A DNA stretch of 64,000 bases from NCBI RefSeq assembly GCF_018977255.1, contig NW_024704759.1, forward strand, positions 9,734,001 to 9,798,000, in the 5' to 3' direction. This DNA comes from Callorhinchus milii (taxonomy: Eukaryota). Position 1 is the stretch's first letter; every line of letters starts with the position of its first letter. The position numbers and the translations under genes are program-made. The notes below the pieces were generated by a model. That model was given only the letters and a program-made list of their open reading frames with translations, made no database searches and was not told where the DNA came from. This document shows positions 1,511-63,247 of the stretch, piece by piece.

Positions 1511-3721
1511 GTGACCAATATTCCTCCCTTGTTCAATTTGCCAAAACAAAATTTAATTTGTGTGTTCATCTCATTTCTATTCATGGGGCACTGCGGGCAA
1601 GGATAAGCTGCCGTGCAATTCCTAAGTTATATCAAGTTATTACACACACTTTAAAGTAAGTCATTATATAATAATAACAACCCTTGCGTTTGATATAACG
1701 CTTTATCATGTCGAAACGTCTGAAGCAACGGCACAAAATTACATTTGTATAGTACCTTTCAAGTCGGGAGAATATCCCGAGATGCTGAAAGCACTTTGCA
1801 GAGTTTTCTGTGATGTCTAGTGGCTGTATTTGTAGATGTACAGGAAGCGCTTTGAGATGTTTCAAAGTGAAGATGTTGAAGGTGAATGTATCTAGTTGCA
1901 TATTTTCTTGTGCTGTAAATGTTCCACAATGTTTTCAGTCATGCTTTAGAATGTATTTCAGAATGATGCTGCTCGCTCAGGCAATCAATATGAAATGAGC
2001 CTTGGCATCATTGGGAAAAAACCTGGTTGTTTCACTTTTGTTATATAAAATAAAAGCTGCAAGGCAATGTCTTCCAGGTAGTTAAACATTTGCTCTCGAG
2101 TGGGGGAGGGGAGCTATCTCAAGCCCTCCCTTTGAATAGGTTGGGGAAAACAACTGCTATGCATTTAGAAATACTTCCACATGAAAGATAGCTTGGTGTA
2201 TGCATTTGCATAGACTTCTGTCTCACTGCCGGCTTTGACACACATTGCTGGCTTTGACACCCACCTTTCTTTAATCAGACAGTTTTGAGTTACGTTTTTA
2301 ACCCTGAGGGAAACCCTCCCTCACCATCCTAAAGAAAGACTGACTTTCTGGGTCGCTCGCTTTATTGCAGTGAAGTAATTCCATGTTAGTTCGAAATATC
2401 TGTGGAATTTGCAAAGCCGAGATTTTCTTTTTAAAATAAATTTGAAGTGTTGGGGCTGTGGTGTGGATAAGGTGTTTGTTGTGTGTGTTTGTTGGGTAAC
2501 AGTAAATTGCATGATATTGGAGCCAAACAAAAACAAGACTGACGAGTTTTGACCTAATTTTTGTTTTTGTTCTCTTGTTAGTTTTTACAGCTGCTTGGCT
2601 GAGATGGAATTTACTGAGAGGACAGGTCTGGTTTTGCCATTTCTTATCACACTGTCCTGATTACAATTACACATAGTTCTGAATAGCAGCCTAGACTTTC
2701 CAGTACTCCAGAAGCACAAACAAAAACCAGCTTAAATTGTTCTCGGGTGAGAAACAGCAGGCAAGCAAGTACCTACCACATGAGCCTTGTTGTTTTGTGC
2801 GGTATTCTTTTGCTTCAGGTTCTGTCTCACAACGACAGCTATAAACTCAATTCTGGTCTAAAAGCTTCTACTGTTGTCAAAAATGGAGTCTGGATTTACC
2901 GGCCCAATGATTTCCCCCCCCCCAAAAAAAACCATCATTCCAAACGTCAAAATACAGGTATATTCCAGTCGCGTTTAGCGATCGGTTCAAATAGAGAACG
3001 GCAGTCACCACCTTCTCCGGGCGAGTAGGGATGAGCATTAAGTATTGGCCTAGCCAGGGTTACTTACATCTTGTGATAAAAAAAAGTTGACTTTTGAACA
3101 AAATATGTGTTCAGATTTTCGTTTCACCCACAAAATACAGTCACACTATTTTAAAGTATAACCTGTGAAGACATCCCGATGATATTATTATTATTATTGT
3201 TGTAAATTGCTGCACTTCAATTGATTGTCCAGCGCCTTGGGACATCCTCCCGACGTGAAATGTACGAACGTAATTTTGTTGTGGTTAAATTACACTTGCG
3301 TTTTGATATTGATATTTGATATTTGCATTTTGAAGGGATTTTACAATACAACTGATACTACTTGAATTAAGGCGCCGTTTCATCTGTGTTATAAATTGGC
3401 GCAGTTTTCACCCTCGGAGGATGCACATTGTTTACGATTCTAAGCCAACTTTCGCACGCCGAGATGAGATGGGCTGCAGGTATGTTTGCTTAGATGTGTG
3501 TCGCTCTATAGTGCACGTGATGCATTGACTCTCGTTAACTCCTGACAGCATTTCTTGCAGGTTTTTTTATTACGCAGGCACCCGGTTCGACTCAGTGCCT
3601 GCAGTGGAGGAGTCCTAGGTGGCTGCCTACAGTTGCACATCTGGACTCGCACCTTGTGCGCTAACACGTGGGACTAGAGTTGCATTAAACCCAGGTGGAG
3701 AGCTGGTTAATTTTAACATTA

Positions 3722-5799: not shown

Positions 5800-6184
5800 A
5801 TGATGATGATAATAATAATAATCCTTGCATTTGACACAACGCCTTATCACATCTTTGAGACGTCTAAAAGGGCTTCACAGAATAGACTGTAAAGTGAATA
5901 GACTATTTTTTATGGTGAAATGCGGCAGCCAATTGCACACAGCAATTTCCACAAACAGTCGTGGATTGAATCAACAAATTATTATTATCTTATTACATTT
6001 TTTTTAAGGCATTATTATCCCTGGAAAAGTGATCTGCCAATCGACTAACAACCAGGTTCTTACTTACTGCTAGGTAAACAGAGGCGTGTGGAGTAAGGAA
6101 CTTGCCCAAAGTTTTGCTCTGCCCAGGAATCGAACCCAGGTCTCTCGCTTGCGAGGTGAGTGCTCTAACCACTGAGCTACAGGA
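5800..6184 (-). mobile_element. tRNA-Deu SINE, full length, long subfamily
   Basis: Same head, core and tail as 22-391. Confidence 0.9.
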
Positions 6185-9357: not shown

Positions 9358-9672
9358 GGAGTCCTGCAGCTCAGCAGTTAGAGCACTTGCCTTCCAAGTG
9401 AGACACCAAGATTCAATTCCAGGCAGAGGGCGAAACCTTGGGCAAGTTTCCTTACTCCACACAGAGCCTAATAATAATCCCTCCAAAACAAAACAATAAT
9501 AAATTGATCATTTTCAATTCCGACTGTGTGTGGGATACTGCTGTGTGCAATTGGCTGCCACGTTTCACCCACAAATATACAGTCAATTCACTTTACAGCA
9601 TATTCTGTGAAGCGCTTTGAGACGTCTAGAAGACGTGAAAACGCTATATCAAATGCTAGGATTATTATAATA
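9358..9672 (+). mobile_element. tRNA-Deu SINE, short subfamily
   Basis: Head ggagtcctgcagctcagcagttagagcac; lacks the central cctctgtttacctagcagtaag segment. Confidence 0.9.
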
Positions 9673-10224
9673 TTATTAAATGCAAGCCGTTGCTCTTGAT
9701 TCAATATTTCTTGATTTATGGCAGCGATGGCCAAACTTTTGGGTTGATTTACGGCATAAATTAAGAAATATTTATTTTGTTGGCCAGCCAAAAAGGTTGA
9801 CCACGACTGCTCCAGGGATTCCAGTTATTGGGATCGCCAACGGGATTCAGACTGGATTCCTTCATCAGGAATTTGGGAATATCCAATATTTGGACTGTTT
9901 GAACTCCAATATCTGGATTATCTCACGTTGAATGTTACCAGAAGGGACGCCTTCAAGTAACTGGATGAACGTGACACCAACCCACGGGAACTCTGCCTCA
10001 AAATGAAGCTGAGTTGATGTGAGTGCGTGTGTGTTGGCATGAAGGATGCTCTTTACTCTATGCTTCTACTCTTTGTTTGACTTTCCCTTCTGCCGTATAT
10101 GTAGAGATTCTGGTCTACACCCTCTAGTGGACTGGAAGGATATTGCGCATTGGTTTCTTTTCCCAGTGTTACTGCCTCCGAAGGGTGTTGAATCTTTGCG
10201 GAGTGTTCTTGTCAGCTGCTCTCC

Positions 10225-23539: not shown

Positions 23540-24296
23540 CGATCTTGGATATGACAGAATTTTGGCAAGATAGAAGCCTTGGAAAATCTGAGGGTTTGTC
23601 TCAAAGTGATACCATTGCTTGCTCGCTTGTATTAGAGAAGTGAAAGGGGAGGTGAAGGGGGGGCAGGGGAGTCACTTACATTACTTTTTGTGTAGTTGAG
23701 ACCCTGCATTTTAATCTATAATTACTGATTCAGTCATGACCACAATTGATACCACATATGAAGTGTGTCAGTGCAATGCAGCGGCTTAATTTTCCATCGG
23801 TTATTTTTAACTCAGAAGTAATGTTGATCACATGGCGTGACCTTGGTTTATGTCTGCTGTCACATTTGTGACAATTTTTTTTTTATTAATCTGCCTCATT
23901 CTGCCGCACAACCATTGCCACCGAGTTAGCAGCACAGGTGGCATATGGAAACTATTATCAGCAATGCGGGAAATCCAGACGATTCTTTGACTTTACGCTT
24001 TACCATCCCGGATCCTATTCCTTATGGATCGTGAGATACTTGTAAGTCTGTAGTGAAATATGCAGGTCAAGTTTTTAAATCTGCAAACATACAAATGGAG
24101 TTTGTCCCAGGGATCAATTTGATTTGCACCCATGAAAAGCACACACTGATGGCAGTGGATGGCAGTACCAGTTTGCAGAGGTGACATGCTGATGACAATC
24201 AATAGGGAAGTCTGTGCTGTTTGCAGCTCAACTCGAGATATCTTACCCTGCTACTGATGGCACACCAAAGGTGTAGATAAGATATTGTTTCATTCA
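23540..24296 (+). repeat. Left arm of a near-perfect ~755-bp inverted duplication
   Basis: Reverse complement of 26117-26871. The only difference I saw is a T10 vs A8 homopolymer. The ORF track shows the same 69-aa ORF in both arms. Confidence 0.95.
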
Positions 24297-24731
24297 CACC
24301 ACACCAACCCCCCACCCCCCCCCACACACCCCCACACACACACCCAACCAACCCCCACCCCACACACCCCATCCAACCAACCCCCCCACACCCCCACCAC
24401 ACACCCACCCAACCAACCCCCACACCCCCCACACCCACACACACACCCCCACCCCAACAACACACCCCACCCAACCAACCAACCCCCCACACACACCCCC
24501 ACACACACCCCACACACACACCAACCAAACCCCCCACACACCCCCACCCAACCAAACCCCCCACACACCCCCACCCCACACAACACACCCACCCAACCAA
24601 CCCCCACACACCCCCCCCCCACCACACACCCCCCACCCCACACAACACACACCCAACCAACCCGACCCCCACCCAACCAACCCCCACCCCACACACCCCA
24701 CCCCCAACCAACCCCCACCCACACACACACA
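24297..24731. repeat. C/A-only low-complexity minisatellite (CCAA/CACA/CCCC units)
   Basis: About 430 bp almost devoid of G and T; source of the spurious HPT and GVW ORFs. Confidence 0.95.
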
Positions 24732-26116
24732 TCTCATGATCACATTTGATCTTGTCCTTCCTTCCCACCCCCCCCTCTCAATCTTCTACCCAACACCCAC
24801 CTCCCCAATTCATTTATCCATCTATCTATCTCTATCTATCTATCTGTTTGTGTCTGTCTATCTATCTATCTGCCCCTTTCCTTTCCATTTATCCTTCCAA
24901 TTTCCGTTTTATTTTTTACCCCCCCCCCACCATTTGTCTCTTGTTGTTCGCGCACACACATACACCTTCGCCCTCATTGATCATTTCCCCCCCCTTTTAT
25001 TCACCCCCTTTTCTCCATTCTTTTATCCCTTTTCCCCCTTCTACTTATCCTGTTTTGCCCCCTTTTCCATTCATTTAGCCCACCCCCCCACCCACCATTT
25101 CACTTTTTTTCCCTTCGTTTTTAGTAATAATTCAAATAATCCAATAAATTATTATTGATAAATTATTACTGCCAAAACAGAATCCAAAGGTGCACAAAGT
25201 TCTTTCACAGTCAGCTTTTACCTTCCAAATTCACTTCCAAAGAAGATATCAAATGATGTCCCAATTTAGGAAATTATTCCAAACTGTTTAATTGGAGGAG
25301 GTTGTTGATGAAGCTGAACAAATAATAATAATAATAATCCTTGCATTTGATAGAATGCCTTATCACCTTCTTCGAGACGTCTCAAAGCGCTTCACATGAT
25401 ATACTGTGAGCGCTTTCAAGTGCTTTGAGACACCTTCCTGACATGAAAGGCACTAAATAAATGCAAAAAACACTGCACTGGAGCATCAGTTGAGACGAAG
25501 AGTTGAACGTCCCTGGCACAGGACACAAACCCCTCGTGGTACTATCAACCAAGCCAAATTCTGATTTGCCATTGCTTTTTTGCAGCTAAAGAAAAGTTCA
25601 AGACTTAAAAATGTCAAAGCAAAATGGTTTCAGAAACTGAAAGATGATTGCTTAGAGACTCTTCACAAAAGGAAACTGGGGAAAACTGGAGGTCGGGTGG
25701 ATGGGGGGAGGAACTCTTAAGTGCACAGCTCCCTTTTTCCAATCTTGGCAAAGTTAAACACAATAACAATTTACGTTTATATACAGTGATGCTTTTCAAG
25801 ACGCAAGGACGTCTCAAAGCGCTTTGCACAGCTGACTGGGAGCTCAAGCTGGGGATGGGTGTTGAGGCAGATGGGGAAGGAGAGGTGACTGAAATCCCAG
25901 TTGAAAAGATAGATCTTAAATATATAAAGATAATATTCTTGTGGAGGAATTGATGCATTTTATCGGATAAGAGTAATGAACCATTTCTGTCCATCTTAAA
26001 TATGCATATAGCAGAAATGTTCTACTGCAATTGCTTGACGTGCAACAAGGGTATATTGCTTGTACTGCCTGAGGACAAAGAAACTATAAAACAAGCCACT
26101 GTTCATAGATCAGACT

Positions 26117-26871
26117 TGAATGAAACAATATCTTATCTACACCTTTGGTGTGCCATCAGTAGCAGGGTAAGATATCTCGAGTTGAGCTGCAAACAGCACA
26201 GACTTCCCTATTGATTGTCATCAGCATGTCACCTCTGCAAACTGGTACTGCCATCCACTGCCATCAGTGTGTGCTTTTCATGGGTGCAAATCAAATTGAT
26301 CCCTGGGACAAACTCCATTTGTATGTTTGCAGATTTAAAAACTTGACCTGCATATTTCACTACAGACTTACAAGTATCTCACGATCCATAAGGAATAGGA
26401 TCCGGGATGGTAAAGCGTAAAGTCAAAGAATCGTCTGGATTTCCCGCATTGCTGATAATAGTTTCCATATGCCACCTGTGCTGCTAACTCGGTGGCAATG
26501 GTTGTGCGGCAGAATGAGGCAGATTAATAAAAAAAATTGTCACAAATGTGACAGCAGACATAAACCAAGGTCACGCCATGTGATCAACATTACTTCTGAG
26601 TTAAAAATAACCGATGGAAAATTAAGCCGCTGCATTGCACTGACACACTTCATATGTGGTATCAATTGTGGTCATGACTGAATCAGTAATTATAGATTAA
26701 AATGCAGGGTCTCAACTACACAAAAAGTAATGTAAGTGACTCCCCTGCCCCCCCTTCACCTCCCCTTTCACTTCTCTAATACAAGCGAGCAAGCAATGGT
26801 ATCACTTTGAGACAAACCCTCAGATTTTCCAAGGCTTCTATCTTGCCAAAATTCTGTCATATCCAAGATCG
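26117..26871 (-). repeat. Right arm of the inverted duplication, ending exactly at an N gap
   Basis: Matches the reverse complement of 23540-24296 and stops at the first N (26872). Confidence 0.95.
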
Positions 26872-26896
26872 NNNNNNNNNNNNNNNNNNNNNNNNN
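26872..26896. other. Assembly gap (25 N)
   Basis: Run of N. Confidence 1.
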
Positions 26897-26989
26897 TGTT
26901 AACATTCAATAAATAGTTCTTTGAGGCATTCGCCATTGCAAACAATGGGTAGGATGCAAGATAGTCATGCACTGCAAGAACAACAAATG

Positions 26990-27688
26990 TTGTTGGGGGG
27001 GGGGGGGGGGGGGTGTAGGAGCTCCTACCAGCCAAGCCCAAACTGGTGTGCAAGTAACCCTGGTGAATTTCATTTTACAAGCAAATGATAAAAGTGTTGA
27101 CGATTCTGGCCATCCTCACTTCTTGCACTCAACTGCAATTAACTGCTACACTAATGGGCACCAGCTGCAATACATTACAGATATAAATACCCCCCTTGCT
27201 GTAGGAGAGAGGGAGGCAACACAAAAATCTTCAGCTGATAAAGGAGGAGGGGGAATCAACTAAGATGCAACCTGATCCTGTGGGGATTTGGAAGGGGATG
27301 GGCAATGGGGTGGAGGAGGGGAAGAGAGAGAAGCTGTCTGTGAACACTTCACCACCAGAGTGGTGCCATTCAGATAATTAATGTTAAACGTGGGCAAAAG
27401 GGTTTAATGCTCAAGATATCTAGTAATACAAGTACTACCACGTGCTTCATATTAGACCCCCCCCCCACACACACACACACACACTCCCATCCCCTCCCCA
27501 TCAATCATTCATGAATTGTGATGCAACCCATTCTTTTTCCCCCAAAAAAGATAAATCTGCAGTTACGATTTCTGTAAATGCTAATGCAAAACACGTTTGA
27601 TCAATATTAAATCATCGGTGATGAATTGCACGATGACCTCGTTAGTTTTGGTGCTGAAAGAGGTCCAAAACAATTGAGATTGCTTTAA

Positions 27689-27723
<35 letters not shown>

Positions 27724-28060
27724 TCTATATTAAAAAAAAGCTGTTGGTGAGGGAATCACTAAATAGCTGTTCACTGCAGTTTGATCTGCTTCCAATATCG
27801 ATTGTATAAGAGGGAGGGAGGGAATTATTATTATTATTATTATTTATTGGTGGTGGTGGAGGGGGGGAATTAAACTTCCCAATACTGCACTGCAATTTGC
27901 TGATCACACAGACTTTTTTTTCTCCTCTTTTCTTTCTCTCTCTCTCTCTCTCGCATTCTCTCTCAGATGAATCGAACGGATAAGAGGGAACTGCTTTTTT
28001 TTCCCCCCTTTTGGCAACTGCAAGTTGGAGGAGAAGAAATTTCGATATGTGTTTTTAAAA

Positions 28061-28096
<36 letters not shown>

Positions 28097-29249
28097 AAAA
28101 AAAGGGGAAGAAAAAGAGGAGGAAGGGGCTGGTGGGGAAAGGAGAGAAAATATACCTAATATATGTAAAAGACCCAATATATTATACTATATATTATATA
28201 TGTGTGTGTGTGTATATAAAGAACAACTGCGACCATTGAGTGAGTGGCTGTAGGAAGTAGGAAATCAAAGATGGCTGGAGGTCATGGCTTCAGGGGTACA
28301 GGGGATCAGCATCTCGCCCTCTCTCAGCTCCACACACACACACACACACACAATAAGGCAACACACAACAGCACCTTCCAAATAAAAGGAAAGACAACAA
28401 CCACAGAAACCTTTCCTCTCTCTCTCCCCCCCCCCCCACCACCAAAAAAAAAGTGGTCCAAATAAAAACATGAGATGGAAAAACTTTTCTCTCCCTCTCT
28501 CTCTCTCTTCTCTCCCCCCCCCCCCCACCACACACACCCCCACACCCAGGGATGCAAAAGGGGGTCAAGTGTTTTTTTTCGACTTGTTTACCAACAAAAC
28601 AAAACTTGGGACAAAAAAACACACATTTTTATTGCCAAACACACTCACTCCCCCCACACACACATTTTTTGGACACACACACACACACACACATACACAA
28701 GTTGGAACATCAACTAAAGTAGAGAGATACAGGAGAGAGAGAGAGAGATAAAAGAGAGATACAAATACATATATTTTTAAAAAAGATTACCCCCCACCCC
28801 CCAAAGCTTTGCTCCTCTGCGAATGCATCGCGAAAAACAGGTTAAAAAAAAAACCCCCAGAGACCAGAGCTGAAATACACAGTGCGAACACAGCGCAGAG
28901 CGTGTGGCACAGATATATATATATAAAAAAGAGAGAGATAATTCTTTCTTTGTGTGACATGTTGCAAACTATTTATACCGACACTCTCGATCAATAAAAA
29001 AAGGGGGAGAGAGGAGAGGGAGAGAGAGAGAGAGATTTAGGCTCTGAAACGTGCGCTCCTCCAGCTCTCCCCTTTTCCTCTGCTTTTTCAGCCCAAATGT
29101 AACCCCCACAAAACCACCACAAAATCGAAGTTTGGCAGAAAACACCAGAGAGCATCGATCGTGAACACGGGGTATCATTTAGAGCCGGTGATTTGCTTTC
29201 ATTCGAGGTTTTTTTTTAAAAATATATATATATATTTTATATTTATATC

Positions 29250-29280
<31 letters not shown>

Positions 29281-29960
29281 GGCAGTGGTCAATAGCTCAG
29301 GTCTTGCTCTCTCCCCTCTCTTTCTCTGACCACCACAAGGACATTACAAGCGCTTGAGCCTTGGGTCATTTTTCTTCTCTCTTTCTTTCTTTCCTTCCTT
29401 CCTTCCTTCCACCTTCTCCCCACACACACTCTCTCTCTCACTCTCCCCCCCACAACTTTTACCATTCAAACAAAATTGATCCACATCAGTTCCCCCCTCC
29501 CACCCACCCCCTCCCTCCCTTCTCTCTCTCCCCCCCCTTCCTTCTCACTCCTTTTCCTTCAAAAGAAATGTTCATCTTCAAGATAATACCTTCAGAAACA
29601 ATTTCTCTTTTAAAGTAAACCAACGCCATCTCTTTTTGAGATATTGCTCTCCACCCCTCCTGGGTTGTGTGTGTGTGTGTGTCTCTCTCTCTATCTCTAA
29701 CTCTCTCTCTCTCTCTATCTCTTTCTCTGATGGTCAGTTCAAAAGAGGTTACAATCTACAGCAAAGTCTAACACACTCTCTCTCACACTCACACCAGTTT
29801 AATTAAATCACTTTATCGTCTCTCTCTCTCTCTACCCCCCCCCATGCACATGCACCCCACCACCCCACACTCCTCCTCTGGAACTATTAGATCAATCAAA
29901 CCCATAACCCCCACAACCCCCACCCCCCCAAAAAAAACACACACACACACAACTACCCAC
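26990..29960. repeat. Microsatellite/homopolymer-dense stretch (GA, CA, TA, poly-C, poly-G) in SALL4 intron 1
   Basis: Many short tandem repeats, e.g. poly-G near 26995-27014, (TA)n(CA)n 27689-27722, (GA)n 28063-28092. Confidence 0.85.
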
Positions 29961-30029
29961 AACAGCAATGTTATTTAACAAAAAAAAGCAACGTTGGGAA
30001 GGGAGAGAAAGAGTAGAGAGAGACACAAG

Positions 30030-30788
30030 ACTCACTCACACACACTCTCTCACACTCTCTGTGTCTCTCTCTCACACACTCTCTCTCACTCTCACTCACA
30101 GACTCTCTCACACTCTCTGTCTCTCACACTCCCTCTCACACTCTCTGCGTCTCTCTCTCACACTCTCTGTCTCTCTCTCTCTCACTCGCACACACTCTCT
30201 CACACTCTGTGTCTCTCTCTCACTCTCACTCACACACTCTCTCTCCCACTCTCTGTGTCTCTCTCTCACACTCTGTCTCTCTCACACTCCCTCTCACACT
30301 CTCTGCGTCTCTCTCTCTCACACTCTCTGTGTCTCTCTCTCACACTCTCTGTGTCTCACTCTCACTCGCACACACTCTCTCCCACTCTCTGTGTCTCTCT
30401 CTCACACACTCTGTGTCTCTCTCTCCCACTCTCTGCGTCTCTCTCTCACACTCTCTGTCTCTCTCTCACTCACTCGCACACACTCTCTCTCACACTCTCT
30501 GTCTCTCTCTCACTCCCTCACTCACACACACTCTCTCTCCCACTCTCTGTGTCTCTCTCTCACTCTCACTCACACACTCTCTCTCCCACCACTCTCTGTC
30601 TCTCTCTCACTCTCACTCGCACACACTCTCTCTCACACTCTCTGTCTCTCACTCACTCTCACTCGCACACACTCTCTCTCACACTCTCTGTCTCTCACTC
30701 ACTCTCACACTCTCTCTCACACTCTCCGTCTCTCCCTCACTCACACACTCTCCCTCACTCACTCCCTCTCCCCTCTCTCTCTCTCACT
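30030..30788. repeat. Compound (CT)n/(CA)n minisatellite directly behind the exon-1 donor
   Basis: Repeating units such as ctctcacactctctgtgtct over about 750 bp; source of the SLSH/LTL ORFs. Confidence 0.95.
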
Positions 30789-30795
30789 TGCTCAC

Positions 30796-30862
30796 CGTTC
30801 GCCACTTTTAGCTGCTGCTCGGAGTGGATGTGCTGGGGGTTCGGCTGCTTGCGACGCGACAT
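30796..30862 (-). CDS. SALL4: SALL4 coding exon 1 (MSRRKQPNPQHIHSEQQLKVAN+G), antisense to exons 2-4 in this assembly
   Basis: Reverse complement reads gccATG TCG CGT CGC AAG CAG CCG AAC CCC CAG CAC ATC ... AAC G|gtgagc. This is the SALL N-terminal NuRD-recruiting motif (MSRRKQxxPQHI) followed by a phase-1 GT donor that matches the phase-1 acceptor of exon 2. Confidence 0.88.
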
Positions 30863-31320
30863 GGCAGATGCATCAGTAACAAATAAAACCCCCCAAAAAA
30901 AAAAATTTCAAACAAATTCTGGTGGAGTTGCCAAATTACTGCGGGGAGTGGAGTGCGCATGTGTGATGGTAATTATGATTATCAATAATGCATTGCGATT
31001 TATCATCGCCCCCCCCACCCCCCACCCATAGCCCCCACCCCCCCACCCACACCCCCCACCCACAGCCCCCACCCCTGACTGCCCATTGGCCCTCAGCCAA
31101 GATCCTTCCCTCACCGTATTCAAATCAGCTGACATGGGGGGGGGGGGGGGGGGGAGAGGGGGGAAACACCCATCATTACCATCACCATCACCCATCACAT
31201 CCTCCCCTGACCAGGGCAGTGCGGGGAGGGGCGGGGCAGTGCAGGGCGGGGCGGGGCAGTGCGGGGAGGGGCGGGCACTGTAGTCACTGGACACTGCACT
31301 GCACTGCACTGCACTCAGTC
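30863..31320 (-). promoter_or_regulatory. SALL4: SALL4 5'UTR and proximal promoter
   Basis: Directly upstream of exon 1 on the minus strand: AT-rich block (30971-31004), CCAAT box (ATTGG at 31085-31089), tandem GC boxes GGGGCGGGG in a roughly 20-bp triple repeat (31214-31275), and (ACTGC)n at 31293-31315. Confidence 0.7.
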
Positions 31321-31380
31321 CAGTGGCCCCTTTTTTTTAAAAAACACAGCCAAACCACCACTCGTCGCACACACGTTGGG

Positions 31381-31881
31381 NNNNNNNNNNNNNNNNNNNN
31401 NNNNNNNNNNNNNNNNNNNNNNNNNNNNNNNNNNNNNNNNNNNNNNNNNNNNNNNNNNNNNNNNNNNNNNNNNNNNNNNNNNNNNNNNNNNNNNNNNNNN
31501 NNNNNNNNNNNNNCCCCACACACACACACCCAACCAACCAACCCCCCCACACACACACACACCCAACCAACCAACCACACCCCCCTCACACACCCCCTCA
31601 CACACACACACCCAACCCCTCACACACACACCCAACCAACCAACCCACCCCCTCACACACACACACACACACACCCAACCCCTCACACACACNNNNNNNN
31701 NNNNNNNNNNNNNNNNNNNNNNNNNNNNNNNNNNNNNNNNNNNNNNNNNNNNNNNNNNNNNNNNNNNNNNNNNNNNNNNNNNNNNNNNNNNNNNNNNNNN
31801 NNNNNNNNNNNNNNNNNNNNNNNNNNNNNNNNNNNNNNNNNNNNNNNNNNNNNNNNNNNNNNNNNNNNNNNNNNNNNNNNN
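31381..31881. other. Two assembly gaps (31381-31513, 31693-31881) around a CA-rich fragment
   Basis: Runs of N. Confidence 1.
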
Positions 31882-31984
31882 CAACCCCCCACACCCCACA
31901 ACCCCCTCACACACACACACACACCACACACCACACAACCCCCACACACCACACACACACCACAACCCCCTCACACACACACAT
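31514..31984. repeat. C/A-rich minisatellite fragments similar to 24297-24731
   Basis: Units such as cacacacacccaaccaaccaacccccc, interrupted by gaps. Confidence 0.9.
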
Positions 31985-34770
31985 ACTCTCGAAAGGACCG
32001 TTCCTCCATGTTGTAACATTGCTGTCTTGTGCAAGCTGTTTCGCCCGCAAAATCTACACGCAATTCACTTTCTAGCGCATGCCGTAAAGCGCTTTGAGAC
32101 GTCTCGAAAATGCGACAAGGCGCTGTGTCAAATGCAAGGATTATTTTTATCATAGGCTAAAGCGCCTGTACTTCAATGTGTGCTGAGGATCATCGTGTTT
32201 GAAAGAAACGTGTTTACTCACATGCGAGTTACGAAAAAATGGAAATACATCACTTGCTGCACATAGCTGGCCGGATACTCTTTCGTACTGTACAGAACTT
32301 TTGGGGGAGGAGATTACTGTTTCAATGTAAGAACGAGTATCCTTTCAATGCAAATCAAGGAAAAATTGGCATAAGCTTCTTGTTCAGGTGATTTACTACA
32401 CCTTTTGCTGCCTCTCCCCTGGTAAATGCTTGTGGTTTATATTTGATTAATTTTTTTGAAATATGCAAATTTATATCTTGTTTGCAACCGATTGACATTT
32501 ACAATCTTAAGATCAAAACCGCGGTCAAGAAAACTCCCAAAATGTGAGCCAACAAAACTCATCCTTCCGGTGGATTACAAGACTTTTTGAAATGTATTGA
32601 GGGAGGGCAAGATAAATCAAAGCTTGCAGGTTTCAGAAAAAAATTCTAATGCCGATGGTTCATTCCCCTTTTCACAATTACCTGGTGTAGTTTCTTTGTA
32701 AGCGTTCCTTGAATGACACTGTGATCTGGAGGCTTTTAAAGCTGGGTCAGTTACATTGCATTTACAGCAGGAGGTGTTTGGTTTTGGATCGTTGGCAGGT
32801 AGTCATTGTGACGACTACCTGGAGGAAAAAATCCCCCCTTTTTGAACCTGGCTGGATGTTCAACTTCCATTTGCCGTGCTCGCGAATGATCTTCGAGTAT
32901 AGTTACAGTGGCCAATCTAACAAAGATGGTAGCCACAGCTCTCAAAATGGCTGCAATGTGAGAGAGAGCCTGCTTAAGACACACACATGGACTAACTGGG
33001 TGCCAATACATTAAACTTGGAAGATGAGGTTTACGCCACAAGTCGTTGGACAACATACTGCGTCACTAGTGTACTGTCATAGCTGAGGTTCATCTCGGGT
33101 TGGGTTAGGAACCTGCCAACATTTAGACGTGAAAGGGCATCACACAGCCCCCATCCTGGAGATCTTCTGCCAAGTTTACTTTAAAATCCATTTATTCATT
33201 TGGAGGATCGGGGTTTGCAGCACAGATTGAACTGATTATCTCGAGTTTCTTTGAAAGTCTTTATTAGTGCAAATGGGGTGAATATCAACTTCACTGGGGC
33301 CAGTTTGGCTTGCTCAGAACTGCTACATTTTAACATTGCTCTGAAAGTTTTTTTTAAACAACAGCTGATGCCAAAACATCGCTAGTTATGGGCAGGTTCG
33401 CTGTAGATTCTTACCATTATAAGATGCAACATATCCTTGCGACAATGTTAATCTTTCAATTTCAATTGAGTTCAATTGAGTTTTACATCATTGCCCAAGG
33501 GTCTCAACTTGTGAGGTGAATGTAACAGCTGTGGTGTCTTGTTAAACATTTTGCTTTTACCATCTTAGCCGTAGCTTTTTTGGGAAAAAAAATTGCTTAA
33601 ATGCATGACTCAGTTTTACTGTTGGGCATTCCCAGATGTTAGCACGTTCAGATTCTTTTTCATTCTGGAATCATCTCACCCTGTGCTTTGCCCCCAGGGT
33701 GGTGGGGGCTTGGGGTGGTGGGGGGGGGGGCGGGGGGAGGGGAAGGGAAAGTTGGGTCACAAAAGAATTTATCAAAGACTTCTGCTGTGGTACCTGCAGA
33801 TTTGACTTGAACAAATTTGTGACATTTGACTTCAGTACTGGACGTTGGCAGGAAGAAATTCTACTTGGCTCTAGATTTATTCTTAATGACATAGCGTTTC
33901 AACTTGTCCAAAATTTGTCAAACCTTTTAAATACAAATTAGTAAGTTCAAAATTGAGTTATTTGAAGGACTATAGGCTGGGCTTTGAAATGATTACTGAA
34001 TTCAATAAGCTGTCAAACTCTGCACAGTCGGAAATGCTACTGTTAATCCAGACACAGATGGAATTTCAACCCATAAAATTGCTTAAAAATACTCAATACT
34101 GCCGCTGAGTGGTTTAAACAAAAATGAATTGCAAGTTGTGGATTGAGATCTGTCGCTGTTGGTTGAGGATTTTGTGAGTAAACTGAATATGAATATTTTA
34201 TTTGCTAGAGTTACATTTATTCCAAATAGGGTAATTGAAATTATGAAAGAAAAGAACATAAGTAACCTCAAAAGTACTATAGTCACATATAGCACACCTC
34301 AATAATGTGCATTTTATTAGTTATGTACATATGTGATTCTTGCTATTGTCATTTGATCAAATTGCTGGCGCTTACCCCACTCTCTCCAGGCTTTTAATGG
34401 GTCACAAGAAATATTGTGGTTCAATTCAATTTCAGCTCAAGCACTGTGATGGGGAATAATTACGAACATTGCAATGATGGATCTTTAACTAATAAAGCTT
34501 TTCTGGACTTTGAACAGCTTTTACTGAACTTTTTCTCATTTTCCAAATATTTTACTTCCTAAAAATAGTGCTTTGTGAAAAGCACAGTCATTAACAGGAC
34601 TGCATTGTAGATCTGCCAGGCAGCTCCTGATGTGAATTTCACATTGCAACTCGGAAACTAAAGCTTTGAATGAGCATACTCTACTCAGTAGCAGATCTTG
34701 TGGCAATGATTCACTCGTGGAGTTATTCTTCCAGGCACGTGAATCTATCCGTTGGTAATTTAAGGATTAG

Positions 34771-37734: not shown

Positions 37735-38091
37735 TCCTGTAGCCCAGTGGTTAGAGCACTCGTCTCGCATGTCAGAGGACCTGGGTTCGTTTCCCGGGCA
37801 GGGAGAAATGTTGAACGTATTTCCTTACCCCAAACTCCTCTGTTTAACTTGCAGTAAGTAGGAACTTGGTTGTTAGTCGATTGACAGATTGCTTTTCTGA
37901 GAGATGGAAATCTCTTCAAAAAAAAATTGGTCGCTCAATCCACGACTGTTTGTGGGACACTGCTGTGCGCAATTGGCTGCCGTGTTTCACCCACAAATAT
38001 ACAGTCGATTCACTTTACAGTATATTCTGTGAATGCTTTGAGATGTCTCGAAGATGTGATAAGGCGCTATATCAAATGCAAGTATTATTAT
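37735..38091 (+). mobile_element. tRNA-Deu SINE, full length, long subfamily
   Basis: Head, core and tail intact. Confidence 0.9.
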
Positions 38092-44830: not shown

Positions 44831-45114
44831 CCTTTGCAAGTGAGAGACCTGAGTTCAATTCCAGGCAGAGGGCGAAACCTTGGGCAAGTTTCCTTACTCC
44901 ACACAGAGCCTAATAATAATCCCTCCAAAACAAAACAATAATAAATTGGTCATTTTCAATCTACGATTGTTTGTGGGACACTGCTGTGTGCATTTGGCTG
45001 CCGCGTTCGCCCACAAATGTGCAGTCAATTCACTTTACAGTATATTCTTTGAAGGGCTTTGGGACGTCTAGAAAACATGAAAAGCGCTATATCAAATGCA
45101 AGGATTATTATTAT
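44831..45114 (+). mobile_element. tRNA-Deu SINE, short subfamily, 5'-truncated, abutting a CR1 remnant
   Basis: Shares a 95-nt identical block with the 9358-9672 copy. Confidence 0.9.
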
Positions 45115-46446: not shown

Positions 46447-46767
46447 GGAGTTATGTTGCTCAGTGGTTAGAGCACTCGCCTTGTAAGCGAGAGGCCTGGG
46501 TTCGATTCCAAGCAGCGCAAAATCTTTCCTTTTGTTTCCTTACTCCATATACCTGATAATAATCCCTCAAGAAAACAAACAATAATAGATTGGTCACTTC
46601 CATCCACGACTGTTTGTGGGACACTGCTGTGCGCAATTGGCTGCCGCGTTTCACCCACAAAATATACAGTAAATTCACTTTACAGTATATTATGTGAAGC
46701 ACTTTGAGACATCTAGAAGACGTGAAAAAGTGCTATATCAAATGCAAGGATTGTGATTATTATTATT
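46447..46767 (+). mobile_element. tRNA-Deu SINE, short subfamily
   Basis: Head gctcagtggttagagcactcgcc...ggttcgattcc, core and tail. Confidence 0.9.
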
Positions 46768-50215: not shown

Positions 50216-51997
50216 GGGTGGGGGGTGGAGGGGGAGAATGAGCATCAGACCTTAGCTCTACTTTTCTGAAGTGTGTGTGTAGGAACTAAAAGTTTCAAAG
50301 ATTATAAAACTTTTTAAACGTCGCACAAAATATCTCATCAGTGTTTCTCAATGTTAATTTTTTTCCGCAAGTAGGATTTGTGGGAAAGAAATTTGTGTGT
50401 GTGTGTCTGCATCTGTGTGTGTGTCTGTGCGGGGGTGGGGCGGAGAGAGAAGGTCTAAGGGGCACTGTTAATTCTCCATTCCAGGGTGTTTTAAATGCAC
50501 ATGTGTGTTTAGCAATATTTAGTGTTGCTGACAATACCTTCAGGCATTTCCTAATGGACTTAACTGGCAGTAATTAAACTGATCTGTTTGTCATTTATTT
50601 TTAAAAAAAATGTTTCTTTCATTGAAGGCACACAGTCTTTTCTTTGGTAACATTCCAAACATGTTGTTAAAGTTCGAAACAGCCACCGCTAGTAAAACCT
50701 TTGATTTAATTGTGGAATCCCTCTCAAGATTATATACATTTAGGAATTTGTAACTAATAAAACTGACTGTCGTTTATTTGGATGTTATAAGTTGTAAATT
50801 GTTTTCCAGTGCATGTGTGCAATCGTATATGCCTTTTAAGCTGTCAATGAACAGTCAGTGGTTAGGTTAAGTTGCTGCTACTTGCCATGGCATGGAATTG
50901 CACAGACCCACAAGATCCCAGGTTTTGCTGAAATTTGTGCAGTTGGATGATCTTAGCTGGGATGAAGGGGAATTTTAGTCGGCTTTAGAGGTTCTGGATT
51001 AAAGTACGGTCCATGAGTGGCTTGCTGGTGTCCTGATAGTACAAATGCTATAATCGATCTCGTTGGCTTGAATTGGGGGAAGTTCAAATCAGCCATGCTT
51101 CCTGCTGCTGATCACTGTCCAGTGGAGCCTTGATCGAAGGAAGGTGTGTGGGTGGCTGGACCAACAGAACAGGTTTGACTAACGTGCTGCCAGCTGAGAC
51201 GCACGTGAAATTACCAGTTGGGTGAAGTAACCAGAGGGCACTCCGCAGCATTGGTTGGCACTTCGAGGAGAGAGAGAGCATTTTTTTTAAAAAAAGCAGA
51301 CGTAATGTTGGCACTGGAATGTACTGTTGTGTCTCCTGCGTAACAAGCATGTAAGTGTGTGGGGCTGTGTGAGACTTGCAGACTGGCATTTGATGCCTCG
51401 TTTATTGTGGCAGACGGCAGCTGAAATGGAAAATAACGTTGGCTTTATTGCAAACTAAGTGCAGAGTTCCTGTCCTTACAATTTTGGTGGGTTCCAAGCC
51501 CTCAATTAACAGTGACAGAGACCCGACCGGCCATTTAATAGAATTTTACTGCTGTTCCCTCAGCTTTCTCTGCTTGTGTTTTTAACGTGGCTGCAGGGAA
51601 GGGACCCAGTTTGTTTCAGCCTGACTTCTAAAGCTATGGTAGACAACCATGAGGGCAGTTTAATCAACACTGCTTGCTGGGATGGTGATGGAACTGCTCA
51701 AATTGTTGTCAGTGTCTCTGGGCTAGTCAGGAAAGGTTGGCGAGGGTCCTGCTAACTGTCCTCTAGACAGGGACCTGGAAAAGGGGTGCGTTGTGGGCTT
51801 TTGTAGTCAAATGTAGTCACTCAGTATCCAGAATGATCACAGAGATGGTCTGTGGAATGCTACTCGCTGTCCCAATCCCTGACTGTCCTGCGCTTTGAAA
51901 TGTCCTCCCGACTTGAAAGATGCTACACAAATGCCTTCAGGAGGGGTGAGGAGAAAGCTATCAGTTTGAGAATGATGGCTGTTGACTGTTCTTTAGG

Positions 51998-52062: not shown

Positions 52063-52315
52063 TTAACACCATCTCATCCTATGGGGAATTAAGCGCAATG
52101 ATACGATTGCTAATTCGTACTAAGAGCCTAACAATCGCGACACTAGGAACCTGGCACCAGCTTTGTGTTTGGGAAGGTGCCTTGCAGGAGAGAACCACAT
52201 GGGGGAGCAAAGAGATTTGTACAGTAATTCGTTGGAAGTTATTTTGCAAAGAGCATGACGAGAGTTCTTCTTCATACAAACGGATAACTTTTTTTTCCCG
52301 TTTTCGTTCCGTTAG

Positions 52316-54964
52316 GAGGTTCTCGAGAATGCCAGGATGATGGAGATCATGAAGTGAGCGCCAAGAAATGTCGAACCGAAGACACCAACGTCTGTAAGAA
52401 ATGCTGTGCTGAGTTCTTCGATCTGTCCAAGTTCCTCGAGCACAGGAAAAATTGCACTAAAAACCCACCCGTTTTGATTATGAATGAAGGCGAGAGAGGA
52501 ATGCCTCCAAAAGACTGCCCAGAATCCTGTCCGGAAACCTTTACCAGCAACCAAATGGAAGGTCAGACCTCGAGTGATCAGTCCAAGAGCAGTGGTAGCT
52601 CTGACGGGAGGATGGACGAAGAGAGCGAACCTGCTGAGATGGATACTGATCATAATAACGTAGAATCTCAGAACGCATGTGCCTCAAATGCTGCTGCCGC
52701 CACCGCCAGTTTACATCAGTCCTCTGACGTGAGCACCGTGCCCCAATCCAAAATCCCCAACACTAACGTCACATTAGAGACCATTCAGAACACTAGCGTG
52801 GCAGTGACTCAGCACGTTCCTGACCACGTGCCTTCCAACAATTCCAACGCGACCGGAAGTGTGAACGTCATTCCCATCCTGCTCGAGCAACTGGTCTGCT
52901 TGCAGCAGCAACAGCTCCAGCAGATCCAGCTCACTGAACAAATCCGCATCCAAGTGGCGATGATGGCTCCTCATTCCCTGCACCCCTCGATTGTGGCAGC
53001 CGCAGATCCGCTCAAAGCCCTGGGGACCCACCTGTCGCAACAGCTTTCTGCTGCCGCTGCTTTAATTGGGCAGAAAGTCGGGAACCAAAGCTTTACCCTG
53101 GAAGGGTTCAAACCAGTTCAACTACCTCGTTCTTCGGTTGGCGTCATCCCAACGCCTTTCGCCAAAGGTTTGCACCTGTCCGAGTCAGGCTCTCTGCAGA
53201 CTGTCGGCCTGCTGTCCTCGCTAACCTCCAAGCCCGATCCCATCTCGCGCTCCGAAGTGGGGCTGAAACCCGGCTCGGCCATCCGATTCCCGAACCCGCT
53301 GCTACCTCAGTCGCCAAACGCCGTGTCGTTCCACAACTCGCTGTCGGGCCTGTCGGCGGCGTCCGCTGCCCGGAACCAGAAAGGTAAGCCTCCCAATGTC
53401 GCCGTGTTTGAGACCAAGTCCAGTTCCGAGGAGTCCTTTTTCAAACACAAGTGCAAGTTTTGCGGCAAGGTGTTTGGAAACGACAGCGCTCTGCAGATTC
53501 ACATCCGCTCGCACACCGGGGAAAGACCGTACAAATGTAACATCTGTGGCAATCGCTTCACCACCAAAGGAAACCTGAAGGTCCACTTCCAGCGCCACAA
53601 GGAGAAGTACCCTCACATCCGGATGAACCCCTATCCCGTTCCTGAACACCTGGACAATGTTCCCACCAGCAGCGGCATTCCCTACGGCATGTCCATACCG
53701 CCCGAGAGTTCAGCAAATTGGGTGGACACCAAGCCCGTCTTGCAAACATTGTCGAATTCCGTGGGGTTGAACCTATCCAGCGGTTTTGAGGAAACATCCG
53801 ACAAAGCTCCCGTCAGTGACTTTCTGCAACGACAGTCACCGACGGTTAGTGAATCTGCCTCCATGTCGTCCAATGTCAGCAACTACGAGGTTAACCTGGA
53901 TGTCCAGCCCAGCAAGCCCACCGCCGAAAACGGCAACGCCCTTAATCTGGCCGCATCCACATCCGAATCACTGAAGGCTAAGCCGTCTCTTGGTAACGTG
54001 TTCGACGAGAACGGCCAAGCGTCTGAGACCTCCAAGTTGCAGCAGTTGGTGGAGAACATAGACAAAATGACAAACGACCCGAATGAATGTGCCGTGTGCC
54101 ACCGTATACTGAGCTGCCAGAGCTCGCTCAAAATGCATTACCGCACCCACACTGGGGAAAGGCCGTTCAAATGTAAAATCTGTGGCAGGGCTTTCTCGAC
54201 CAAAGGCAACCTCAAGACTCACTACGGGGTTCACAGGGCAAAGCCACCTTTGCGAGTGCAACATTCATGCCCCATCTGCCATAAGCGCTTCACCAATGCC
54301 GTAGTCCTTCAGCAACACATTCGAATGCACATGGGAGGGCAGATCCCCAACACGCCTTTACCCGAGGGCTATTACGACGGCTCTGACCCAGAGCCTCTTC
54401 TGCTCGACGAAAATCTTGATTTCGACAGCAGTTTCACCGACGAAAACATGGATGAATCGGAGTTGGAGGGCGACAAGGGTACAAAGGTGCCTCCGGCTGA
54501 GGATTCCAAACCAGTTTTGCCTTATAGTGACTTGCCATCCAACTCCCCTTTGTTGGTCTTCTCAAGTATTGCTGCTTTAGAGAGTCAGATGAAAATGATC
54601 AACTCGGATGTGGATTTGCAGCGAAAGTCCAGTCTGAAATCGAGTGAAAACGGTTCTCCAGAAAGTGAAGTTATGACGAATGATTCCTTCTCGGCAGCTG
54701 GGGATCAGGAATATCCAATTGCACGAAGCCCAAGTGCCTCCGACTCTGCTTTGGTCCTCGCTTCATCTCCTGTTAACTACAATGACAAACACCAGTCTAA
54801 GTCGCCGGGATTCCTCACCATCTGTGAAGCTTCCAGAACCAACACCGAGCCTGCCGAGACCTCTGATGGGGCAAATGACGGGGCACTGGATTTAACCTCT
54901 GGCAATATATATCGCAAAGTTAAGGAAGAAGCACCTAGCGTTCCATTTACAAATGGGGACTGCA
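52316..54964 (+). CDS. SALL4: SALL4 exon 2: C2HC finger, Q-rich multimerisation helix, ZFC1 (double C2H2), ZFC2 (triple C2H2)
   Basis: Pyrimidine tract plus ttag|GA acceptor at 52315/52316, in frame with the 872-aa ORF. Motifs: [43 protein letters not shown], and SAL boxes [16 protein letters not shown]. Donor A|gtaagt at 54964/54965 (phase 1). Confidence 0.96.
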
Positions 54965-57831: not shown

Positions 57832-58145
57832 GTGCTGTCCAAGTTCCTGCAGGTTCCTTTGCCAGGATTCCTCCCGCTCTGATTAAAGTGGAAGCGAGTG
57901 GCCATGGAGAACGTCCAGTAAGCACCACTGCACAATTTCTTTCCCCGTCAAGCGTGGCTCCAATCTTGCCACCCATTTTGGCACCTCCACCCCGCCGCAC
58001 ACCTAAACAACACAACTGCCCTACCTGTGGAAAGTCCTTCTCCTCCGCGAGTGCTCTGCAGATTCATGAACGCACGCACTCTGGTGAAAAGCCATTTGCG
58101 TGCACCATCTGTGGAAGAGCTTTTACAACCAAAGGAAACCTCAAG
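57832..58145 (+). CDS. SALL4: SALL4 exon 3: most of ZFC4 (AT-rich DNA-binding finger pair)
   Basis: Acceptor ttttcag|GT (phase 1). Encodes [45 protein letters not shown]. Donor AAG|gtaact (phase 0). Confidence 0.95.
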
Positions 58146-58334
58146 GTAACTGGTTCAGATTGAGAAAATACTACAGTTGTGTACTGGTCTAAAATTCTTT
58201 TGATTTTTTTTTAAAAAAGCAATGACAGATAGCTCCAATAAGAACTAGCTTGCAAGTGAAGCGGACTTGTTTTACTTGGCGCCTTAGATCTAAGCGCCTT
58301 AGATAGCTTCTCTATCGACTCTGGTTGCCTTGTA

Positions 58335-58505
58335 GGATACTGAGCCGTACAGACAGGAAGCTTCCAGGTTTGATTCTTGGTCTGTGCTCATTTAGCTGAT
58401 CTCAATAGAGGCATCTGCAACTGACGTCCATGTCCCAGGTGATGGAGAGAGAGGGAAAGGGGAAATGGAGGCAGGATTCCTATTCATGATCAATGTCCAA
58501 TGGCT
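58335..58505 (+). mobile_element. AmnSINE2-like 5' portion in SALL4 intron 3
   Basis: actgagccgtacagacaggaagcttccaggtttgattcttggtctgtgctcatttagctgatctca. Confidence 0.6.
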
Positions 58506-59339
58506 GTTGAAATTACGCTTGTCTTGTGGTTGCAGATTTTCTTTCTCTCATTTCTTCTCTCTCTCCATCACATACATACAACACCTAGACATTTAAACAC
58601 ACTGCTGTTATTTGCTGTCCAAACTCTCCTGCAAATAATGACCATTGTGTGGAAGCACTATCCTATCAAGGGGAGCTGTACCAAGGATACAGTTGGTATC
58701 TGGAGTAGGGGGGTAGGGAAGGGGAGAGGTTATTTTCCCCTGCATGACTTGTGATCTCAAAGGCAGAGATGATTGCCCAATAATGACTGTTCTATTCCCG
58801 TGTTTTTACTCTCCAGTCTAGGCGTGTGTTCAGAGTTTTAAAGTTGTGAGGAGTTCTTTCAGTGGTAAACTGAAGCAGTTTGTGATGGAAGTGGTGGAGG
58901 AAATACTCTTGTATGGTCTGTGTTAAGGGCATTTCTTTGGGAGTTGGAAGGGTGTATTTCATTGGAAACTATTAAACCGCATAGCAGCGTACATCAAAGG
59001 TGGTTCAATCTGGGAAATCTCAAACAACATTGCTGGCCTGCAGATGAACTTGCTCACAGGGAGAGGAACACCGTGGCAATTGTACCCAGAGGTGAGGGAG
59101 GGGAATAGTTGTACCGTTTTTGTCCTGTTGAGGCAACAGCTTCGTTCTATTCATGTTGCTGTAGACCACTTCACTGCAGTATAAATGTGGCGACTTCAGA
59201 CTGTCTGTTCAGGTAGTGCTTGAAGCTGACAATCGCATATGTAGTGATCCTCTCGAGTTGGTATCTGCGACTTTGCTTGAAGCCTCAACGACAATAATAC
59301 TAATCATGTTAAAAAAAAATATTTTGCTTTGTATTGTAG

Positions 59340-59765
59340 GTGCATATTGGAACTCACATGTGGAATAACTCGGCCAGACGTGGGAGGCGTCTTTCGTTAG
59401 ACGGTCCTATGGTATTAATAGGCAATGACCCAAAGAAGTTCGCTGAGATGTTCCCCAAAGATCTAGTGGCTCCTGCGATGAAGGTTGAGCCGACGCTATG
59501 GAATCACTACACCACCTCACTCACCAATGGATTAGTCATGAAAACCAACGAGATCTCCGTGATTCAGAATGGTGGCATTCCTCCCCTCACTGTTAGTGTC
59601 ATGGGGAGTTCTGTGTTGAGTAACAGTGCCGCAGTCTCCAAAGCTGAGGGAACCCCACCTGCTATTAGCCCAGTGATGGCTGATGAAGACAAAGCCAGCC
59701 CTGAAGGCATTGTAACACCAACCTTCCCCCATTTTGTGGAGGAAAGTAAAATAGCTGTTAATTAA
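59340..59765 (+). CDS. SALL4: SALL4 exon 4 (terminal coding exon)
   Basis: Acceptor tttgtattgtag|GTG. Encodes VHIGTHMWNNSARRGRRL...KTNEISVIQNGG...FPHFVEESKIAVN*. The C-terminus, absence of ZFC3 and four-exon layout fit SALL4 rather than SALL1/3. Joined CDS is 3456 nt = 1151 aa. Confidence 0.94.
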   Translation: MHIGTHMWNNSARRGRRLSLDGPMVLIGNDPKKFAEMFPKDLVAPAMKVEPTLWNHYTTSLTNGLVMKTNEISVIQNGGIPPLTVSVMGSSVLSNSAAVSKAEGTPPAISPVMADEDKASPEGIVTPTFPHFVEESKIAVN

Positions 59766-61722: not shown

Positions 61723-63247
61723 TCTTTGACTTTAGTTCACAATGTTTTTTCATGGTGCTTTGACATGCAAGTGGACTGATGCAGGGGTAACTGTGAATCT
61801 GCAGAACCTATATGGTTTACATGGAAAATGGATCTTTTGTTACATCATGTCAAAGATGCCTTGAATGGCATGATTATGTATGCTGTCTTTCATGAATGTT
61901 TTAGTGGCTCTCTTTAGTGCATCTACTGAATGTAAACTTGATTTTTTTTTCTTTCTGGCATATGGGAATAAATGCAGGTTGACATTGTTACAGTCAATCG
62001 TTGTCGTCTTTTGTCCTTTATTTCAAACCTCTTACATGCAAGGCTCAATGAAGCTACTTAACTAGGTGTTACTCGTCTGGTTTGCCAATCTACACAGCTG
62101 TGCAGATGAATGCAAGTTCTGCACAGGGACCAAGATTTCTCAATTGGTAAATTCACTATATGACGTGGTCTTGAACTATATAGGTTGGGTGGTTCTCAGG
62201 AGCTTGGTCCTTCCTCATCAACTTCCAGCTGAACTGACAAGCAGGACCTCAATATAATGTCTATTCTGAAGGACAGTTCCACCCACAACTCCACTGGAGT
62301 ACAGTGGCTAGTCTTTTGACTGTGACTTGGGTTAAAGTCCAGCCTAGCATGAAATTCTGGGATGAGGGGCTAACATGGAGTGTCAGTTTCTAACCTATTA
62401 TCTGGTTGAAGCACTAAAGTCCTATGCCTTAGTGCTTAGAGCACTTGCCTCGCAAATGAAAGACCTGGGTTTGATTCCTGGCAGGGCGAAACCTTGGACA
62501 AAGTTTCCTTACTCCACACGCCTGATAATAATTGCTCAAGAAAAAAATCAATAATAAATTGGTCACTTCAATCCATGACTGTTTGTGGGGCGCTGCTGTG
62601 CGCAATTGGCTGGCGGGTTTCGCCCACAAATATACAGTCAACTCACTTCACAGTACATTCTGTGAAGTGCTTTGAGACGTCTAGAAAAGGTGAAAAGAGC
62701 TATATCAAATGCAAGGATTATTATTAGAGAGCTGCTGAAACCATAGTTGTAAACTAGCAAACAACTTCAGGAAAACCAGTAAAACCTGATTCAGTATTTT
62801 TTTATATAATCAAATTCTCATTGATCTAATCTTTCCCTTGTCTTGTGAGTGAGTGTACAGAGGGCACTGTCGAGGGAATATGAGCTGCAGATGGGTAAGA
62901 ACCAAAGCTTGAGGGTGGGGGTTTGTGTTGGTACTGCTTGAGTTTAGTTAACTAAAACCTGAGCTTGCCATTGAAGGCAAATGAAAGGCAAGTGGATAAA
63001 TATATACATGTGTTTAAACACTAGTCGTCTGAAGAAATAACTGGAAAGTGAGATTAATAGTACAATAGGATTGATTCTGATGTACTTTGGCCCATTTGAT
63101 CTCAATCTTCCAGGATACTCACTCTAATATCTTTGACTTCAGTTCACAATGTTTTTTTATGGTGCTTTGACATGTACGTGGACTGATGCAAGAGTGACTG
63201 AATCCGTAGAACCTATATGGTTTACATGGAAAATGGACCTTTTGTTA
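61723..63247 (+). repeat. Pair of ~120-bp direct repeats (61723-61842 and 63130-63247)
   Basis: tctttgactt.agttcacaatgttttt..atggtgctttgacatg...agaacctatatggtttacatggaaaatgga.cttttgtta occurs twice with a few substitutions. Confidence 0.9.
62418..62726 (+). mobile_element. tRNA-Deu SINE, short subfamily
   Basis: Head, core and tail present. Confidence 0.9.

Follow-up and report, generated by a model that had tools for sequence, protein, structure and literature searches.

The window, by which we mean the whole stretch of 64,000 nucleotides of Callorhinchus milii DNA analysed here, carries the SALL4 gene, with exons 2 to 4 on the plus strand and coding exon 1 on the minus strand (Table 1). 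Exon 1 is 67 nt long (22 codons plus a G), is directly followed by GTGAGC and starts a protein with MSRRKQPNPQ...; a six-frame scan of the window gave a single match to MSRRKQ, at 30862-30845 on the minus strand. Exon 2 begins on the plus strand at 52316, after an acceptor AG at 52314-52315 that follows a pyrimidine tract, and its join to exon 1 (G+GA = Gly, then GSRECQDDG...) leads into an open frame of 884 codons. A preliminary description of this DNA had reported a 67-nt exon with a phase-1 GT donor at 30862-30796 on the minus strand, its in-frame join to 52316, exons 2-4 on the plus strand and the absence of any plus-strand MSRRKQ exon; our coordinates, length, donor, acceptor, frame and exon positions agree with it throughout.

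The N-terminal NuRD-binding motif of the first exon reads RRKQPNP (30836-30856, minus strand) and fits the N-terminal RRKQxxP consensus presented in 10.1101/2023.07.31.551264, the binding itself being a prediction for this protein. Among the 87 MSRRKQ proteins compared, the motif was RRKQAKP in 85 and RRKQANP in two; a change in RBBP4 binding through the RRKQPNP variant would be conceivable. Searching the whole genome with the exon-1 pattern returned three matches (none in the reversed control), and none of the three was on the plus strand at the SALL4 locus. A second SALL4 exon 1 elsewhere in the genome was considered and rejected, the other two matches being paralogues (the pattern is exact, and a diverged copy could escape it). 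Closer to the ATG than the 31-nt element, the sequences upstream of the three SALL first exons have more blocks in common; tables of paralogous conserved elements for SALL1/3 and SALL1/4 are included in PMC3595034.

The protein encoded by exon 2 matches a public Callorhinchus milii SALL4 model (P0002, XP_042197883.1) at 100% identity and shark and ray SALL4 (nearest P0003-P0007, from Carcharodon, Hemiscyllium and Leucoraja) at 77-80%; of the 120 matches listed, the best that carry a name are annotated as sal-like protein 4 or spalt-major. By its sequence, the gene is SALL4. It shares with vertebrate SALL4 this exon-2 identity, the small first exon of 22 codons plus G with RRKQxxP, and the C2H2 clusters in exons 2 and 3. 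It differs in i) the motif, which is RRKQPNP here but RRKQAKP in all 24 shark and ray MSRRKQ models (and ANP in two amphibians), and ii) the reversal of exon 1, which is found in this assembly only. For 57832-59765, three zinc-finger clusters only were noted, together with an N-terminal C2HC finger in the protein, which is the usual SALL4 layout. The neighbouring genes, a C2H2 gene at a distance of 90 kb upstream and an NFAT-like one downstream, would fit the order ZFP64-SALL4-NFATC2. Downstream of the stop codon, 61723-61842 and 63130-63247 form a 120-bp direct duplicate (90% identity). A dispersed repeat of ~370 bp, by inference SINE-like, occurs in many copies and both orientations (19-390, 5809-6184, 9358-9678, 37735-38091, 44834-45114, 46447-46765, 62418-62726 and others).

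Table 1. Features of the SALL4 locus (positions in the window)
Feature	Position	Strand	Basis or remark
Block D, first copy	23540..24296	+	non-repeat; exactly two copies found in genome
Left CA/CCAA array	24297..24730		probably makes up, with right array, one array lying upstream of promoter; boundary with D (24296/24297) likely a false join
Unique sequence in first likely flipped block (24297-26871)	24731..26116		orientation inferred
Inverted copy of D	26117..26871	-	last base adjoins 25-N run; probably an overlap left unmerged, or an extension into the gap
25-N run, likely true assembly gap	26872..26896		N in genome's copy too
Start of SALL4 intron 1 (3.9 kb), in second likely flipped block	26897..30795	-	includes GA array 30045-30785
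SALL4 coding exon 1	30796..30862	-	MSRRKQPNPQHIHSEQQLKVAN + phase-1 G, GT donor; RRKQxxP inside
31-nt element	30970..31000	-	present unchanged ahead of each of the genome's three SALL first exons
G+C-rich upstream region, putative promoter	31001..31380	-	sequence composition
Right CA/CCAA array	31381..31983		continuous in genome's copy; likely holds right-hand false join
End of cryptic or alternative exon, GTAAGA donor	32298..32326	+	a single contig, from run X2, connects it to exon 2
Substitute first exon of P0002 (MVDNHEGS...)	51636..51735	+	public model XP_042197883.1
SALL4 exon 2	52316..54964	+	acceptor, open frame, protein matches
SALL4 exon 3	57832..58145	+	protein-model comparison
SALL4 exon 4, coding part up to stop	59340..59765	+	protein-model comparison

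Edges of the reversed region

The genome's copy is identical to the window everywhere outside N, and between 23001 and 33000 it contains N at 26872-26896 only; the runs on the right-hand side are filled there and lie inside one continuous CA/CCAA array that extends from 31381 to ~31983. Thus the preliminary observation stood in its exon coordinates, strands and frame but not in its claim that N gaps flank the segment on both sides, since the left edge is a 25-N run and the right edge a simple repeat array. The disturbed region is also larger than had been described, beginning at ~24297. Programs that fill gaps mark an overfilled one with exactly 25 N.

Immediately left of the gap lies the inverted copy of block D. 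Block D is 757 bp long, and the two copies are identical at 755/757 positions (99.7%), the sole difference being the length of a T run. Within the 464 kb around the locus (400 kb flanks included), 32 pairs of sequences were at least 97% identical over at least 100 bp, and the D pair alone exceeds 324 bp; its inverted copy stops one base from the sole remaining run of at least 10 N, no further such run in the 464 kb being also N in the genome's copy. A systematic pattern of 25-N gaps with inverted duplicates was tried and rejected: the 400 kb flanks contain no second run of at least 10 N, and the gap with its inverted duplicate is therefore a single case.

At the outer edges, 36 of the 37 CCAACCAAC words in the 464 kb fall within the left and right arrays, and two further long arrays, of CA or GT, lack the word altogether. 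The CCAA units vanish from the right array after ~31880. The two arrays are in direct orientation, with no reverse-orientation 10- to 25-mers in common; exact matches between them are short (29 bp at most) and do not fix an overlap. The intron end at 26897 and the sequence that follows the right array share no overlap of at least 40 bp. Neither the join at 24296/24297 nor the one within the right array contains N, so the assembly presents both as continuous.

Two signs of mis-orientation are present: i) the reversed block is edged by a 25-N run, probably an assembly gap, on one side, with CA/CCAA arrays at the outer edges; ii) a near-identical duplicate of unique flanking sequence, namely D, ends at the gap. 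Both the inverted 757-bp duplicate ending exactly at the 25-N run and the CA/CCAA array, which appears split in two, are new here. Of 20 one-kb bins of intron on the plus strand, 17 had a G+T fraction above 0.5, and all three bins of the reversed piece as assembled had values of 0.40-0.49; this strand skew fits transcription with exon 1 but would be the same for an artefact or an old real inversion, and was therefore not used as evidence.

Transcripts, paralogues and relatives

The exon 1/exon 2 junction was found in contigs of X1 and X2 (study P1) and X7 (study P3), that is, in three of four presumed RNA runs (X1, X2, X7 and X8) from two studies, although such contigs are blind to cis- versus trans-splicing. 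Ahead of 52315 these contigs carry 34 (X1), 129 (X2) and 108 (X7) loose letters; the 30 letters next to the junction match 30826-30797 on the minus strand only, and none of 100 shuffles matched. The contigs of X8 stop short of the junction. The junction that the preliminary description had predicted for RNA-seq is thus present.

In addition, one X2 contig (depth 6.7) joins the plus-strand donor at 32326 to exon 2. This join places a switch of orientation between exon 1 and 32298, for which the right CA/CCAA array is the obvious place. It also creates a TGA in the exon-2 frame, so that such an mRNA would start at an internal Met (MNEGER...), a start also found in models P0122, P0128 and P0167. 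The substitute-exon region (bins 51624-51893) had zero contig cover in all four runs, which was not counted as evidence.

The genome holds three SALL zinc-finger exons. On C2 and C14 the first exon and the zinc-finger exon are on the same strand in the right order, and the only discordant pair is that on C18. Relatives were compared through genome-based protein models of sharks and rays. An MSRRKQ start was found in 24 of 40 models longer than 1000 aa, covering 21 of 22 named species, with an exon-1 length mostly equal to that of Callorhinchus milii; the one species lacking such a model is Rhincodon, whose listed members (15 of the 17 in its cluster) are of isoform X2 only. The comparison with other chondrichthyans proposed in the preliminary description thus finds exon 1 nearly throughout the sharks and rays. 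The remaining 16 of the 40 are alternative-start isoforms, from which NuRD-less SALL4 isoforms may truly exist as real products in cartilaginous fish.

On the other hand, none of the three SALL4 models of Callorhinchus milii itself carries MSRRKQ or the NuRD motif, as had been anticipated for a falsely N-truncated annotation: P0002 uses the substitute first exon, the second model takes in pieces at 3421 and 8102, and the third begins at an internal Met. The latter two models are older ones in which two residues depart from the window, and they too miss exon 1; the same orientation could recur in another version of the assembly, or exon 1 could simply be absent there.

Orientation of exon 1 and its consequences

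Sequence comparison argues strongly that the opposite-strand exon 1 is an assembly artefact within an ordinary four-exon SALL4 gene and not new biology. As exon 1 is joined to the rest in presumed RNA sequences, SALL4 is probably an ordinary gene here, and its public protein models are likely in error. A mis-oriented contig had been proposed before on the ground of two flanking gaps; that argument fails, and the proposal is supported instead by the inverted overlap at the gap, the split array and the junction.

The two flips, the precise limits of the flipped blocks and the course of the assembly are inferred as follows. The true order would be upstream DNA, D, the unique 1.4 kb, one GT/TTGG array, the promoter, exon 1, intron 1 (at least ~24 kb in this order) and exon 2. 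Assembly may have stopped at two places, inside the array and where the GA-rich intron piece ends, giving two contigs (24297-26871 and 26897 to ~31.9 kb) that would be adjacent and in the right order but each placed backwards. Where the first contig ends, an overlap or an extension into the gap would then have left the inverted D copy halting at the 25 N; the ends of low complexity were probably fused to their neighbours without N. If 24297-26871 were flipped, the D duplicate would become a mere overlap; if 26897 to ~31.9 kb were flipped, the promoter and exon 1 would come onto the plus strand; and the two flips together would set the left and right arrays end to end as one array. The reversed exon would have been out of the reach of gene predictors, with other first exons substituted for it. 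The corrected protein is predicted to have 1151 aa, with RRKQxxP at its start.

Such errors have precedents. PMC3504050 (PBJelly) defines a gap as 25 or more N and takes overfilled gaps, as well as flank extensions failing to meet, to indicate inversions and other errors of assembly; PMC9516821 presents first exons and promoters as prone to loss in assembly. Our locus resembles their cases in having a promoter and first exon that are rich in G+C and repeats and lie at a gap, a duplicated flank and a false gene model, but differs from the first-exon loss of PMC9516821 in that the exon is present and reversed, the likeness being one of analogy.

The artefact has to be weighed against a genuine inversion allele carried by the animal that was sequenced. 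One haplotype would then have the promoter and exon 1 reversed and would likely be null or NuRD-less, and ordinary alleles, in the same animal or in others, would supply the normal mRNA. We consider this improbable. Both outer joins being without N would suit such an allele, D with its inverted copy would also be expected from a staggered-break inversion of 24297-26116, and the T-run difference between the copies could be allelic; but two abutting inversions would be required, with their common breakpoint exactly on the sole remaining gap in 464 kb. The F8 intron-1 inversion arises between inverted int1h repeats, with loss of function. Known from haemophilia A, it is an example of inversions of a gene's first part in humans, and there, as here, the promoter and first exon point away from the remainder of the gene. 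Unlike in F8, the normal junction is present here and a search for inverted repeats flanking the exon 1 segment found none; the arrays are direct and the D copies flank 24297-26116 rather than exon 1, and recombination between inverted repeats therefore cannot have flipped exon 1.

Finally, the orientation could be fixed in the species, with a bidirectional promoter near 31 kb, exon 1 transcribed leftwards, the acceptor pre-mRNA transcribed rightwards and obligatory trans-splicing as in Drosophila mod(mdg4), where likewise the exons of one mRNA lie on opposite reference strands (PMC4387717 and PMC6237743). This is highly unlikely: the junction in two studies despite the opposite strands in the assembly, and the 32326 junction, which would imply a transcript start at or left of 32298 near the promoter, speak for it, but cis-splicing fully accounts for the former once the block is flipped, the latter is equally a cryptic exon of intron 1, the flipped block is surrounded by assembly scars, and nothing in the colinear paralogues and relatives requires trans-splicing. 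An opposite-strand layout conserved in relatives, as expected of a mod(mdg4)-type gene, was not found among the two paralogues, both colinear, or the shark and ray species, 21 of 22 of which have exon 1. Moreover mod(mdg4), according to PMC4387717, has variable 3' exons with their own promoters and relies on conserved intronic elements (TSA/TSB), whereas SALL4 is a single conserved gene.

Therefore the reversed exon 1 is a real feature of the assembly but most likely not of the animal, by which annotation would have been misled. Judged by titles and the beginnings of abstracts, a literature search on SALL4 in Callorhinchus, with most subscription journals and supplements outside its range, returned nothing on this locus. 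Were the orientation true, an essential developmental regulator of vertebrates would gain its NuRD-binding first exon through obligatory trans-splicing, which would be rare for a vertebrate. As an artefact it is a matter of curation; since all three public models of the species' SALL4 are without the NuRD-recruiting N-terminus, outgroup studies could wrongly infer that the motif was lost in chimaera SALL4 or that it originated later.
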